A stretch of 5,109 bases of DNA, taken from the UHGV virus genome UHGV-0388354, one strand, 5' to 3'. Both the position numbers and the translations under genes were made by a program. Below the pieces are notes generated by a model. That model ran no database searches. It was given only the letters and a program-made list of their open reading frames with translations, and was not told the origin of the DNA. Position 1 is the first letter of the stretch; each line of letters begins with the position of its first letter. This document shows, one piece after another, positions 1,333 to 5,109 of the stretch. This DNA is from a virus.

Positions 1333-1731
1333 ATGAACACTTGTAAGTACCGAAACAATCCGTTTAACATTCGCTACAATCCTGCGAATAATTGGAAAGG
1401 TCAAACAGAACCTAAGAATGGATTCTGTCAGTTTTCAGAATTGAAGTACGGTGTTCGTGCTGCTTTCCTGCTGGTGTTTAACTATCGTAATCTTCACGAT
1501 GCGACAACTCCTCGTGATATAATACGATATTGGGCGCCCAAGGAAGACGGTAATGATACGTCAGCTTATATAGACTTTGTCGGCCAGCTTATCAATGAAG
1601 ATGAGCCAATAGATACTACTTTAGAGTATCTTATACTTCTTTACTCTATGTGGAAAGTAGAGCAAGGCTGGTGTCCTAGCCTTTGGGAGTTCGCCACACT
1701 TTTGAATTCGTCACTAATAGAAGATCTATAA
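1333..1731 (+). CDS. Conserved hypothetical phage protein (132 aa) with NPxNIR..NNWxG..FxxF..GxRA..IIxRWAP..E..NDT.AYI.FV signature
   Basis: The ORF sits in the intergenic-free slot between Rep and VP1, with its stop 6 nt before the VP1 ATG. The motif string NPFNIRYNPANNWKGQ...GFCQFSELKYGVRAAFLLVFNY...DIIRYWAPKEDGNDTSAYIDFV matches, from memory, a widespread phage domain of uncharacterised function often found at the N-terminus of tailed-phage structural proteins. It is net acidic, so it is not a J/VP5-like basic DNA-binding protein. Confidence 0.7.
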   Translation: MNTCKYRNNPFNIRYNPANNWKGQTEPKNGFCQFSELKYGVRAAFLLVFNYRNLHDATTPRDIIRYWAPKEDGNDTSAYIDFVGQLINEDEPIDTTLEYLILLYSMWKVEQGWCPSLWEFATLLNSSLIEDL

Positions 1732-1737
1732 ACAACT

Positions 1738-3633
1738 ATGCCAAATCTAACTAAGTATTCACTAGATCATGAAGTAAGATCTAGTTTTGAGATGGGTCAA
1801 TTGATCCCATTTTTGTGCCAGGAGGTTGTGCCTGGCGATAAGTATCGCGTACAGTCTAGTACACTTGTGCGCTTACAGCCTATGCTCTCGCCACTGATGC
1901 ACCGTCTTGATTATTATCAGAGGTACTATTATGTGCCTTATAGGTTGCTTATACCTCACTATGAGCAATTACTTACTGACCCTGATAGTAAGTATGTAGT
2001 GCCATCTATGGATAAGTATCTTCAGTTTAAGTCCAAGAAGTTTAAGGATTTATTTGCTGAAAAACCATTGTTGGAGTATTTCGGTCTTGCTACATCAAAT
2101 GGTGAAGCCGATCCTACTAATGTGCTTAAGGATCTTAATGCGACTCCCTTACTTGCTTACTACCTTATATATAATCATTATTATATGAGGTCAGACCTTG
2201 ATAAGCGGTATATTGACCAGCTCCGCCCCGAGAATTTTGAGTCTGCTGAGTTGCGTCAATACATTGGTGATGTTATGAATGTCAACGAAGGACTTGATTA
2301 TTTCACCAGCGCTAAGACATCTACTCAGTATGGTAATATGGTTCAGCTTGATATGAACGGTGACAATACTATTACTGTGCCTGAGATGCGTCTCGCTGAG
2401 CGTTTGCAGTCTTTCCGTGAGCGTCTCCTGCGTGTTGGTGGTAAGTATGTTAATTATATTAAGGAGTTTTTTGACGTTGAACCCCTTGACGCTCGTGTAC
2501 AGATTCCGAAGTATCTCGGTGGTGATTCTTACGTCCTTAATGTATCTGATGTAGATCAAACTGCTCCGTCTGATCTTGGATCGGTTGGTGAGAGTTACGG
2601 AAAATCGGTATCAGTTAATCGTACTGGGTCTATACAGTATGATGTGTATGAGCATGGTCTGATTATTGGTTTACACTTTGTCCGCCCTCGTCCGTCTAAT
2701 ATCGGTGGTTGTCCTAAGTTGTTTACTCGCCGTAATTACTTTGATTTCTTCAATCCCCACTTTTCGGCTCTTGGTTATCAAGAGATAGAAGCGCGTGAAT
2801 TGGACGTTACTCGTCCTAAGACTGAGACTTTTGGCTATGTTCCTAGATATGATGATTATAGATATGGCAATGATGTTGTTAGTGGTGATTTTCGTCGGTC
2901 TCTTAATTATTGGCATCTATCGAGAGATATTTCCAAGGAGCGACTATCAGTACCTTTTGTGACGTGCCGTCCAGATAATCGTATATTTTCTTATGAGGGT
3001 GATAATGGTAGAGTTGAGTTATATTATTTCTCAGGTCATGCGGATCACGTTCTGAAGAATGGTAAATCACAGCGTATTACTGTAGATGGTTTTCTTTGGA
3101 TGCCTATAAATTCGGTTTCCGTAGGTTCAGAGGTTAAACTTAAGAATTATGAATACGATCAGATCGGTGATGATTCTGAAGCTAACTTTATTGAGACAGT
3201 TAAGATTAATGTCTTATTGCCTAGAGAATCTACCGCTATTGTACCAGAGTATGATTCTAAGAGAGACGAAACTAAATTTGATTATGCTCATGAACCTGTT
3301 GAATTGACCACTGCTGATAAGGTTTTTGAAATGGAGTTTTCTGGTGGACATGAAGGGGGCTATTCTTCTCGTGTGCTGGTAGCAACTTGTGCAGATAAGG
3401 TAGGTACATTTATAATTTGCTCTGTTAAACCACAGCTAGGCCCAAATCTTGATACTGTTGAAGAAGTACTACAAGAGGTTGATCAGTTGCGTGCTATAAG
3501 TGGTAGAGTTATTGGCTTTGCTAGTTATCATAAGTCTGGACACCTAGATAACAATCATGTGCTGTCTGTTACTTATAATAATGTTGACGTACTTCGTCCG
3601 CTGGCTCGTTATGATGGTAATGTTTTAAGGTGA
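1738..3633 (+). CDS. VP1: Major capsid protein VP1 (Microviridae, gokushovirus-type)
   Basis: 631-aa ORF. The N-terminal region KYSLDHEVRSSFEMGQLIPFLCQEVVPGDKYRV...LVRLQPMLSPLMHRLDYYQRYYYVPYRLL closely follows the conserved gokushovirus VP1 N-terminus (..SLSH..L.CDMGELVPI...E.LPGD......L.RL.P...P.MHR.D.....FFVPYRLLW). The size lies in the 530-780 aa VP1 range. Strong third-position T bias is typical of Microviridae. Confidence 0.95.
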   Translation: MPNLTKYSLDHEVRSSFEMGQLIPFLCQEVVPGDKYRVQSSTLVRLQPMLSPLMHRLDYYQRYYYVPYRLLIPHYEQLLTDPDSKYVVPSMDKYLQFKSKKFKDLFAEKPLLEYFGLATSNGEADPTNVLKDLNATPLLAYYLIYNHYYMRSDLDKRYIDQLRPENFESAELRQYIGDVMNVNEGLDYFTSAKTSTQYGNMVQLDMNGDNTITVPEMRLAERLQSFRERLLRVGGKYVNYIKEFFDVEPLDARVQIPKYLGGDSYVLNVSDVDQTAPSDLGSVGESYGKSVSVNRTGSIQYDVYEHGLIIGLHFVRPRPSNIGGCPKLFTRRNYFDFFNPHFSALGYQEIEARELDVTRPKTETFGYVPRYDDYRYGNDVVSGDFRRSLNYWHLSRDISKERLSVPFVTCRPDNRIFSYEGDNGRVELYYFSGHADHVLKNGKSQRITVDGFLWMPINSVSVGSEVKLKNYEYDQIGDDSEANFIETVKINVLLPRESTAIVPEYDSKRDETKFDYAHEPVELTTADKVFEMEFSGGHEGGYSSRVLVATCADKVGTFIICSVKPQLGPNLDTVEEVLQEVDQLRAISGRVIGFASYHKSGHLDNNHVLSVTYNNVDVLRPLARYDGNVLR

Positions 3634-3639
3634 TAGATT

Positions 3640-4608
3640 ATGGATCCCGCTACTATTGCAGGTTTAGCAGGTGCAGGTGCTAGTCTTGTCGGTGGTCTTG
3701 TTAATAATGCTTGGGCTGATGCTCGTACTGATAAGCAGTTTAAGCAGATGAATGAGATGCAGGATAAGATGAACGCATATAATGCGCCTGTTGCTCAAAT
3801 GGCTCGATTGCGTGAAGCTGGATTGAACCCTAATCTTGTGTATGCCAATGGCGGTGCTGTTATACAGTCCGCTGTTGGTAATGCTCCACAGCCTGCCCAT
3901 ACTACTCCGATTGATACTCAGGGAGTGTTACAGATGGTACAAACTATTGTCGGTGCTATGCTTGAAAAGGATAAGATACAAGCTCAGAAAGATGTTACGC
4001 AGATGCAGACTCAGTCCAATGAAAAGGTTGCTGAAGGTCATGATACTACTCAGAAAGAGGTTACAGGTATGCAGACTCAGTCTAATGAAAAGATTTCGAC
4101 TGAACGTAATGAGACTGAAAAAGGTATTGCAGATGAGAATCGCAAAGAGAATGTACGTCAGTTTAATGAGACTATGAAGCAACGGATTAGTGAATTTAAC
4201 GCTCGGATTAATCTTGATCGTTTGATAGGATCATATCAAATTAAGAAGATCAATTCGGAGGTCGCTGTTAATCGTATTAGAATGAGTATCGAACAGGATC
4301 AACTATCAATGTCTAAGGCTATGCACAACGTTGAATTAGATTCTGCTTTGGATTCGTTGAATATGCAGAAGTTGCGGTCTTTTATGTCTGTTCCTTATCA
4401 TTTGGAGTCTAAAGACGTTTATCTTTTCATCTCTAATGAGCTCGGTGTATCCGAGTTTTCAAAAACTAAGGCTGAGGAGCTTGCGAAGATGCACAACGAT
4501 ATAATTGATAGACGGATGAAAGATGCCGATTTGTCGACTATGCCGTTGTCTGTTTATTGGGATGCTGTTTTCGGTCCTGTCAAAGATTTGGTGTCTATCT
4601 CGAAGTAG
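3640..4608 (+). CDS. VP2: Minor capsid / DNA pilot protein VP2-like
   Basis: 322-aa ORF immediately after VP1. The Gly/Ala-rich N-terminus (IAGLAGAGASLVGGLVNN), followed by NAPVAQMARLREAGLNPNLVY, matches the conserved VP2 pilot-protein N-terminal pattern (NAP..Q..R...AGLNP). The remainder is Q/E/K-rich and predicted helical, with a tandem repeat. An SD-like AAGGTGA (3627-3633) lies 6 nt upstream of the ATG. Confidence 0.85.
   Translation: MDPATIAGLAGAGASLVGGLVNNAWADARTDKQFKQMNEMQDKMNAYNAPVAQMARLREAGLNPNLVYANGGAVIQSAVGNAPQPAHTTPIDTQGVLQMVQTIVGAMLEKDKIQAQKDVTQMQTQSNEKVAEGHDTTQKEVTGMQTQSNEKISTERNETEKGIADENRKENVRQFNETMKQRISEFNARINLDRLIGSYQIKKINSEVAVNRIRMSIEQDQLSMSKAMHNVELDSALDSLNMQKLRSFMSVPYHLESKDVYLFISNELGVSEFSKTKAEELAKMHNDIIDRRMKDADLSTMPLSVYWDAVFGPVKDLVSISK
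3985..4095 (+). repeat. Intragenic imperfect tandem repeat in VP2 (45-nt unit, 66-nt period, about 40/45 identical)
   Basis: Unit 1 (3985-4029) is cagaaagatgttacgcagatgcagactcagtccaatgaaaaggtt. Unit 2 (4051-4095) is cagaaagaggttacaggtatgcagactcagtctaatgaaaagatt. At protein level, QKDVTQMQTQSNEKV is followed 22 aa later by QKEVTGMQTQSNEKI, and a third degenerate unit follows. Confidence 0.8.
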
Positions 4609-4612
4609 TTTA

Positions 4613-4620
4613 CTATCTTT
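4613..4620 (+). promoter_or_regulatory. Candidate TAnnTTTG -7 element (tatctttg) in the VP2-to-small-ORF gap
   Basis: Exact TAnnTTTG match 25 nt upstream of ATG 4645. The nearest TTTG (4577-4580) is too far upstream for canonical spacing. Confidence 0.15.
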
Positions 4621-4644
4621 GTCTTAGTAACTAATTTCTTTTAT

Positions 4645-4782
4645 ATGGATAAGATATTCAGCAGTATTTTATTTGGATTGCCTTTGTTGGTCGTTGTATT
4701 GGGTTGTATATACTTGGTATTACGGCTTGTCAAAGCTATTATTAACTTGTTTAGAAATAATCATGGAAAAGAGAAGTTATAA
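4645..4782 (+). CDS. Small single-pass membrane protein (45 aa), N-terminal TM helix with Pro plus basic C-terminus; candidate lysis/membrane protein
   Basis: Hand translation: MDKIFSSILFGLPLLVVVLGCIYLVLRLVKAIINLFRNNHGKEKL*. The ATG lies 36 nt after the VP2 stop. The TAA stop (4780-4782) overlaps the start of the downstream ORF (ATG 4763) in another frame by 20 nt. Architecture is a roughly 22-residue hydrophobic core containing a proline, then a Lys/Arg-rich tail. This is the same layout as phiX174 E at smaller scale, but no sequence similarity is claimed. Confidence 0.4.
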   Translation: MDKIFSSILFGLPLLVVVLGCIYLVLRLVKAIINLFRNNHGKEKL

Positions 4783-5062
4783 GTATGTGGCCAGAGAGCC
4801 ACAGAGTGTAGTGTCTGATACTTTACCAAATCAGACTGTAGATCTATCTATACTCGTCAAGCAGTTAATGGACGGTCAAGCCCTTAATGTCGGTTTGTCT
4901 TTGTCATCTGATTCTTCAGATACTTTGGATACTCCCGATATATCTAAGTTTGACGTGCGTCACATGACTGTAGCTGATGTGGATAATCTATTAGCTAAGG
5001 TTTCGCCGGTGAAAATTGATCCTGCGCCGGTTGAGACTGGTACGGCTCCAGTAGCCGATTGA
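4763..5062 (+). CDS. Acidic 99-aa protein in the VP3 (internal scaffold) position; function unassigned
   Basis: ORF MEKRSYKYVAREPQSVVSDTLPNQTVDLSILVKQLMDG...APVAD, with a D/E/S/T-rich C-terminal half. It occupies the position after VP2 where gokushoviruses encode VP3. The track extends it to 4673, but that start is a TTG, and the added N-terminus (MDCLCWSLYWVVYTWYYG...) is W/Y/C-rich and comes from the same T-rich stretch that encodes a cleaner TM peptide in the other frame. I therefore favour ATG 4763. I see only a weak resemblance to known VP3 motifs. Confidence 0.55.
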   Translation: MEKRSYKYVAREPQSVVSDTLPNQTVDLSILVKQLMDGQALNVGLSLSSDSSDTLDTPDISKFDVRHMTVADVDNLLAKVSPVKIDPAPVETGTAPVAD

Positions 5063-5109
5063 TGTTAATGGGTGCGGGGGCTGATGGCTTGTCCATTGCC
5101 CCCCCTCAC
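5061..5109. repeat. 5' half of a nested imperfect palindrome that continues across the window end into 1-70 (C-rich arm)
   Basis: 5061-5080 pairs with 51-70 (16 Watson-Crick pairs, 3 G-T pairs and 1 mismatch over 20 positions). 5086-5092 pairs with 34-40. 5093-5104 pairs with 13-24 (12 perfect bp: ccattgcccccc/ggggggcaatgg), extendable to 5107/8 with bulges. The 9-nt apical loop (5108-5109 plus 1-7) straddles the window boundary. The palindrome starts at the last base of the final gene's stop codon. Confidence 0.65.

Follow-up and report, generated by a model that had tools for sequence, protein, structure and literature searches.

tm45, a small predicted membrane protein conserved in temperate microviruses of Porphyromonas and a possible holin-like partner of an Enc34-type endolysin

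Small phages are generally assumed to lyse their hosts through a single gene that poisons cell-wall synthesis. Typical holins are small, have one transmembrane domain (TMD) and a charged tail at the C-terminus, and diversify strongly in sequence while their topology is conserved; they permeabilize the inner membrane at a set time, an event that energy poisons can trigger, and so release or activate the endolysin. A small lysis membrane protein is also known from a tailless phage, P10 of phi6. In a survey of Microviridae, Roux et al. (2012; PMC3394797) name phiX174 as the only microvirus with a known lysis mechanism and propose that M15 peptidases of Alpavirinae and Gokushovirinae may be endolysins that were acquired. 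Enc34-type endolysins normally carry a C-terminal TMD that is needed for toxicity or lysis from within (PMC8943055). A 2011 paper on Bacteroidetes proviruses does not mention lysis (PMC3091885), and no microviral holin is described in the literature we searched on Microviridae lysis and holins. Here we analyze the virus genome UHGV-0388354, a window of 5109 nucleotides (nt; the whole stretch of DNA under study), which is a complete circular microvirus genome with every gene on the + strand. The subject is tm45, a 45-residue open reading frame (ORF) between the gene for the pilot protein VP2 and the last gene, p99. Comparison with relatives indicates that tm45 is a real, conserved gene for a small membrane protein and suggests a phage protein of the lysis or exclusion type. 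It probably helps a phage-encoded cell-wall enzyme to burst the cell.

tm45 shares features with several described systems. Like phiX174 E, it is encoded by a member of the Microviridae and has an N-terminal transmembrane (TM) helix followed by a basic region, with a predicted N-out, C-in topology. E inhibits MraY, depends on SlyD and has an essential, conserved proline in its TM helix. Unlike E, which is embedded out of frame in a scaffold gene, tm45 occupies its own intergenic slot; phiX174 has no endolysin, and the tail of E is ~55 residues long compared with ~19 in tm45. With holins such as lambda S and S21 of phage 21, it shares the small size, the predicted inner-membrane location, the charged tail, the fast divergence with topology kept, and the presence of a muralytic enzyme without an export signal. 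It differs from them in having only 35–47 residues and one TMD, in matching no holin family and in lying away from the endolysin gene. Endolysins of the Enc34/M4Lys type belong to the same catalytic domain family as a 132-residue protein of this genome, and there, too, a membrane segment is needed for lysis from within. Theirs is fused to a C-terminal two-helix TMD, whereas the 132-residue protein has none; here TM helices are found on the separate products tm42 and tm45, so that any cooperation would be in trans. Those enzymes come from enterobacterial tailed phages, whereas this genome is that of a single-stranded DNA (ssDNA) microvirus with a Bacteroidota host. The M15 peptidases set a precedent for a microviral cell-wall hydrolase, and for microviruses that may lyse without depending on a single gene, in viruses that are likewise human-associated and linked to Bacteroidota. 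They are, however, unlike the PHA02564 glycosidase-like enzyme found here, and no partner membrane protein has been described for them.

tm45 runs on the + strand from the ATG at 4645 to the TAA at 4780–4782 and encodes the peptide MDKIFSSILFGLPLLVVVLGCIYLVLRLVKAIINLFRNNHGKEKL. VP2 ends at 4608, leaving a gap of 36 nt, and p99 starts in another frame at the ATG at 4763, so that the two ORFs overlap by 20 nt. The best 19-residue Kyte-Doolittle window (KD19) scores 2.84 and covers residues 8–26, the predicted TM segment ILFGLPLLVVVLGCIYLVL (4666–4722). The net charge is 0 in the N-terminal flank and +4 in the C-terminal flank. The basic tail (residues 27–45, 4723–4779), predicted to be cytoplasmic, starts with a cationic amphipathic juxtamembrane helix, RLVKAIINLFRN, whose hydrophobic moment of 0.86 is reached by 0.6% of shuffles, and the last residues of the tail, HGKEKL, are constrained because their codons overlap the start of p99. 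The original prediction, made from this sequence alone, had described a 45-residue ORF with an N-terminal, proline-containing TM segment and a basic tail, ending 20 nt into the next ORF in another frame; its coordinates, peptide and both quoted strings are correct, and the overlap is confirmed from the ATG at 4763.

Judged by itself, the ORF is within chance. An open stretch of 44 codons is expected in ~6% of random sequence with the composition of the genome, and with the local T-rich composition a KD19 of at least 2.5 occurs in 11% of open random ORFs. Alternate-frame ORFs of the T-rich strand often match the hydrophobicity of tm45; one of them, within the capsid gene VP1 (2837–2962), has a KD19 of 2.98 and is as TM-like as tm45. 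Because the T-rich strand makes random ORFs look hydrophobic, hydrophobicity was discounted as evidence, and the verdict on the gene therefore depends on comparison with relatives.

Relatives were gathered from GenBank phage records, IMG/VR contigs, metagenome contigs, one GTDB genome and contigs encoding database homologues. The nearest GenBank records are five human-associated Microviridae genomes (L001–L005) with 80–92% nucleotide identity across the alignable parts. One relative lies within an uncultured Porphyromonas genome. The genes pyrD/pyrK adjoin six prophage copies, four of which are also adjoined by a fimbrillin gene; a seventh prophage, L020, has a different host context. These viruses are temperate microviruses that integrate into Porphyromonas (Bacteroidota) chromosomes, and we assign the host to the Bacteroidota because of the relative in the Porphyromonas genome, the prophage neighbors and the direct-repeat attachment cores.

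The original prediction had proposed to look in relatives for an ATG-initiated small TM ORF at this place, and every locus that covers the slot has one: an ATG-started ORF of 35–46 residues is kept between VP2 and p99 in 21 of 21 related loci, both free genomes and Porphyromonas prophages. Together with proteins from database profile searches, there are 31 distinct tm45 sequences of 35–47 residues, which fall into six diverged types. Type A (starting MDKIF) comprises the window and its closest relatives, type B (MNLMHLLTYVVM) is found in L003, L007, L008 and L012, type C (MNIFINYVLYPLL) in L005, L010 and L011/L016, and type D (MLDIITSIIYAIPL) in L017 and L022–L025; type E is MIVTILFNVAAILGLVWCIIYLVKQLKKQFRKRKK of L020, and type F starts with MAHIWNYVPMIL in P0033. 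The other types are only ~30–50% identical to the window peptide, and a large share of this identity comes from the terminal (H/N)GKEKL, which is shared because the overlap with the p99 start forces it. Tallies of TM segments, charge and proline cover 30 of the 31 sequences. All 30 contain one TM segment (KD19 2.46–3.16), and in all 30 the C-terminal flank is more positive than the N-terminal flank (+2 to +8 versus −1 to 0). Between types the TM sequences differ by ~65–70%, within one host-associated clade. In alignment A4, an aromatic Y/W occupies a single column in 20 of 20 sequences and one Leu is invariant; because these positions share alignment columns across types, the six types are probably divergent homologues. 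Tail amphipathicity is similar to that of the window in types C and D and weaker in B and E. A profile search against 1.84 billion representatives returned seven short clusters, most of them ending in GKEKL, the exception being P0032 of L020; an eighth match was to a 950-residue protein (E 1.7e-4). The family thus appears confined to this microvirus clade. Searches for a family assignment in Pfam, NCBIfam, PHROGs and PADLOC gave just sub-threshold generic TM matches, for example HemY_N in Pfam with 15 bits against a cutoff of 31, and the ORF is described nowhere in the literature searched on Microviridae lysis, holins and Porphyromonas prophages.

The pattern of substitution identifies the tm45 frame as the coding one. 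In pairs within types that have at least 7 differences, the Nei-Gojobori ratio of non-synonymous to synonymous change (pN/pS) is ~0.05–0.4 in the tm45 frame; in the two other frames it is ~0.6 or higher and exceeds 1 in most pairs. Between the window and L009 there are six synonymous changes and one non-synonymous change in this frame, and between the window and L015 nine and four. Variable sites are distributed 25/13/40 over the three codon positions, an excess at the third position (P = 8e-4), and 26 variable codon columns are synonymous-only in the tm45 frame compared with 4 and 7 in the others. Stops that lie just before MEKRSY interrupt the upstream extension of the p99 frame in four of eight type A loci (L002, L006, L013 and L015), in every type B and type C locus read in that frame, and in the type D locus L017. 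A single longer protein in that frame, as in the 139-residue alternate-frame ORF (2903–3322) called in OP549879 (L001), was rejected on these stops and on the pN/pS of ~0.6 or higher. We regard the OP549879 ORF as a mis-call because its frame carries stops in relatives, and the original prediction's own concern, that relatives might encode one longer protein in the other frame, is not borne out. Read-through of the VP2 stop codon into tm45 was also rejected: only type A has both in the same frame, separated by 12 codons, and in types B and C the VP2 frame is a different one. A structured RNA element at the slot was rejected as well, with no Rfam match in the window and a fold z-score of −1.42 for 4609–4782.

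Upstream of tm45 lies a promoter-like motif. A TAnnTTTG match, TATCTTTG, is located at 4614–4621 on the + strand, 23 nt before the ATG; the original prediction recognized the exact motif but placed it one position too early, at 4613–4620. TAnnTTTG is the consensus of the Bacteroidota primary sigma factor (sigma-ABfr) at about −7, and typical untranslated region lengths are reported likewise (PMC7366714). The motif is not enriched across the genome (7 matches versus 4.6 expected; 36 of 200 shuffles reach 7). In representatives of types A, B, C and D it is kept 21–24 nt upstream of the tm45 ATG within a short conserved block, on both sides of which the coding sequence has diverged to 13–40% identity; in L017, judged by eye, it stands 19 nt upstream of the ATG of the small ORF, and it is absent upstream of the type E ORF of L020. 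Based on this conservation, we suggest that the match at 4614–4621 is probably a promoter serving tm45 and p99. Sigma-70 promoters and intrinsic terminators occur at chance level and are not relevant to a Bacteroidota host. The 20-nt overlap with p99 is kept in types A–D, and in L020 the two ORFs are spaced by 1 nt. Translation of tm45 is probably coupled to that of p99.

tm45 type varies together with the C-terminal half of VP2 (4180–4608, + strand). In 30-residue windows, VP2 is 63–100% identical to that of L003 and L005 over the first six windows (residues 1–180) and then 13–33% identical to the end. In the same genomes tm45 is 31–39% and p99 87–95% identical. The region of ~4180–4782, comprising VP2 from about residue 180 onwards and tm45, is exchanged together between genomes in which Rep, the endolysin and p99 are otherwise 83–95% identical, and the right-hand breakpoint of the exchanged block is exactly the tm45/p99 overlap.

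The candidate partner enzyme is encoded by the 132-residue ORF at 1333–1731 (+ strand). It matches phrog_873, ‘endolysin’, with an E of 2.9e-23, and PDB entry 7q47, ‘Endolysin’, with an E of 7.9e-6 from the single sequence and 3e-8 from a profile. An AlphaFold2 (AF2) model has a predicted local distance difference test (pLDDT) score of 74.5, and the sole significant Foldseek matches of this model are the two chains of 7q47, the best being 7q47_A (probability 1.00, TMq 0.66). In the HMMER alignment, the Trp of RYWAP and the Tyr of SAYID pair with those of RWAP and AYAN in 7q47, which we take to be Trp79 and Tyr95 of Enc34. A VEQG motif is nearly invariant among the relatives of the enzyme; by eye, outside the significant HMMER alignment, its Glu is probably the counterpart of the Glu of RHENG in Enc34, presumably Glu131. 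In Enc34, Glu131, Trp79 and Tyr95 are catalytic or substrate-positioning residues (PMC8943055). The sequence matches and the model together identify the 132-residue protein as a predicted Enc34-type (PHA02564) endolysin catalytic domain. Its maximum KD19 is 1.01, and we detect no hydrophobic segment, signal peptide or TM segment in it. All complete clade genomes that we examined encode a homologue; the endolysin annotation is absent from all GenBank relatives.

Directly upstream of the endolysin gene lies tm42, a 42-residue hydrophobic ORF (1197–1325, + strand) taken from the ORF listing, with a basic N-terminus and a C-terminal TM segment (N-terminal flank +6, C-terminal flank 0). tm42 is conserved in all five complete GenBank relatives (L001–L005), is gene-called in L017, L024 and L025, and is listed in L016. 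Apart from tm42 and tm45, the genome has no strongly hydrophobic product. The earlier observation that both coding gaps encode single-pass membrane peptides therefore holds, with the 42-residue ORF kept in L001–L005 and in most prophages. L020, which of the relatives with an endolysin is the most distant, lacks the tm42 slot; a predicted 37-residue ORF with a tm42-like architecture is found there out of frame within the endolysin gene (6155–6268).

Our favored, and still tentative, reading is that tm45 is a holin-like, membrane-permeabilizing component of a multi-gene lysis system with the Enc34-type endolysin. tm45 would be transcribed from its own TAnnTTTG promoter and inserted as a single TM helix, with the short N-terminus towards the periplasm and the cationic, partly amphipathic tail at the cytoplasmic face. 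The endolysin, which carries no export signal, would accumulate in the cytoplasm while tm45 builds up in the inner membrane, where it would oligomerize or depolarize the membrane; the opened membrane would then give the endolysin access to peptidoglycan, and tm42 may be a partner or regulator. We infer the expression, the topology and any lysis role of tm45 from sequence comparison, and a role in lysis in general is plausible. All 30 tallied sequences combine one TMD with a charged hydrophilic C-terminal domain, a holin trait. L020 has no tm42 slot but keeps a tm45-type ORF. In addition, the endolysin and the TM ORF are both absent from the sole outgroup, PV594030 (L031), a genome found through its p99 (37% identical); there a hydrophilic 40-residue ORF (4954–5076) fills the slot between VP2 and p99.

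Several observations weigh against this assignment. We detect no homology to any holin family: the best match, to phrog_920 ‘holin’, has an E of 0.37, comes from one member and is noise, and there is none in Pfam or NCBIfam, nor is a consistent dual-start motif found in the family. tm45 thus appears to belong to no described holin family. With 35–47 residues and one TMD, it is, to our knowledge, smaller than any characterized holin, and such a peptide might not be able to release a folded 15-kDa enzyme. tm45 lies 2.9 kb from the endolysin gene, whereas tm42 adjoins it. The promoter-like motif stays linked to tm45 in the prophage, and constitutive expression from it would be hard to reconcile with a lethal holin. 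Because tm45 type varies along with the C-terminal half of VP2, the true partner may be another protein, and the co-occurrence of the endolysin with the TM ORF is judged against a single outgroup genome. The small size, the distance from the endolysin gene, the VP2 co-variation and the prophage-retained motif are the reasons why we hold the holin-like reading only tentatively. That a genome of only 5.1 kb encodes both an Enc34-type endolysin and two conserved mini membrane proteins suggests a compact, multi-component, holin-endolysin-like lysis system in an ssDNA phage. As a holin, tm45 would by its size be a minimal model of how holes form in membranes; as an exclusion factor or a single-gene lysis (Sgl) protein, it would instead open the question of pilot-protein entry or of new cell-wall targets in Bacteroidota.

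Some of the same observations would be explained if tm45 were a membrane protein expressed from the prophage, for example in superinfection exclusion, the main alternative, which we consider unlikely but worth weighing. In the inner membrane of a lysogen, tm45 would block DNA delivery by related microviruses, perhaps through contact with the C-terminal half of their cognate VP2. The viruses are temperate, with prophages situated between the fimbrillin gene and pyrD/pyrK. A 21-bp attachment core, ACTAAACWTWWAACTCATTCT, lies at 230–250 of the window and flanks the prophages as direct repeats (in L016 at 1386–1406 and 6572–6592; also in L022–L024). The core, ACTAAACTTATAACTCATTCT, sits 5 nt before the Rep ATG, on the downstream side of a TAnnTTTG motif at 170–177. 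Because the phage attachment site falls between this motif and the start of Rep, integration detaches the Rep-to-VP2 block from it, which could constitute a simple lysogeny switch. After integration, tm45–p99 is the sole phage gene pair still joined to a phage promoter-like motif, its own TAnnTTTG, a putative promoter in lysogens. Genomes that are alike elsewhere have exchanged tm45 type and the C-terminal half of VP2 as a pair, and the strong divergence between types with purifying selection within them is the pattern expected of specificity determinants. The co-variation may, however, reflect mere physical linkage of adjacent DNA. Furthermore, tm45 is probably coupled in translation to p99, a highly conserved protein with a possible role in morphogenesis, and the PADLOC defence models give no match. 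We know of no exclusion protein in Microviridae. A narrower version, which we regard as less likely still, is type-specific exclusion, in which tm45 of the lysogen would block the conduit that an incoming VP2 forms for DNA delivery with its cognate C-terminal half; the swapping of tm45 and the VP2 C-terminus as one module would thereby be explained. If true, this exclusion would be the first of its kind in Microviridae and would offer a handle on how the pilot protein crosses the inner membrane.

It is doubtful that tm45 acts as an Sgl protein, a TM peptide that binds and inhibits a membrane-bound step in making or exporting peptidoglycan precursors (MraY, the target of phiX174 E, or MurJ, the target of LysM) and causes lysis at division. 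The N-terminal TM helix with a basic tail fits such a role, as does the conservation of one aromatic residue and one Leu of the TM segment across types. Very short single-pass Sgl proteins exist, for example the 37-residue LysM acting on MurJ (PMC12506998), and lysis by a single gene is the only mechanism demonstrated in Microviridae (PMC3394797). However, an endolysin with a conserved catalytic motif makes an Sgl protein redundant, and with an endolysin in the genome, inhibition of cell-wall synthesis is therefore unnecessary to explain lysis. The TM divergence of ~65–70% between types ill fits a conserved protein-protein interface, and tm45 does not lie within another gene as E and most Sgl genes do. 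No homology to E is found: scanned against Pfam, neither the window peptide (E <= 0.1) nor 11 members of the family (E <= 10) gave a match to Microvir_lysis (PF04517). A proline is present in the TM segment of only 15 of 30 sequences; it is replaced by Leu in L001 and L004, whose peptides are 89–91% identical to that of the window, and is absent in types B and E. The likeness to phiX174 E drawn in the original prediction thus fails on homology, proline, embedding and tail length, in a genome that has its own endolysin, and tm45 does not appear to be a member of the E family.

Finally, it is very improbable that tm45 is a leader ORF whose translation delivers ribosomes to the overlapping p99 start, with a nearly functionless peptide and hydrophobicity as a T-rich by-product: the 20-nt overlap in types A–D and the 1-nt spacing in L020, the lack of classical Shine-Dalgarno sequences in Bacteroidota mRNAs (PMC7366714), the equally hydrophobic alternate-frame ORFs and the hydrophilic 40-residue ORF of the outgroup would agree with it, but not the clear purifying selection on the amino-acid sequence within types, the TM and basic-tail topology kept in 30 of 30 sequences over six types, the conserved aromatic and Leu positions and the amphipathic tail in several types.

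Most GenBank records of these viruses either overlook the tm45 ORF or call it wrongly. The description of it as unannotated in the original prediction is right for only part of the records; in OP549878 the homologous ORF, called with an upstream start, is labelled a hypothetical protein. The nr database contains one copy, labelled ‘hypothetical protein [Microviridae sp.]’. In the PV0679xx records (L003–L005), only three genes are annotated, and tm42, the endolysin, tm45 and p99 are missed.

The remaining genes of the window, all on the + strand, are those for Rep/VP4 (256–1194; PF23343), the major capsid protein VP1 (1738–3633; Phage_F), the pilot protein VP2 (3640–4608; PHROG pilot-protein families) and p99 (4763–5062). 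p99 is an acidic protein of 99 residues; no other small protein of the clade is as conserved, its mean column identity being 91% over nine genomes. It has no family or PDB match, and its single-sequence AF2 model is poor (pLDDT 52.7) and unusable; that it is a scaffolding-type protein is a guess. After p99, the non-coding sequence of 5063–5109 joined to 1–60 forms GC-rich nested hairpins with a minimum free energy of −61.8 kcal/mol over 107 nt, which may serve as an origin or a terminator or be related to recombination. The same GC-rich hairpins are present at the right end of the L016 prophage.

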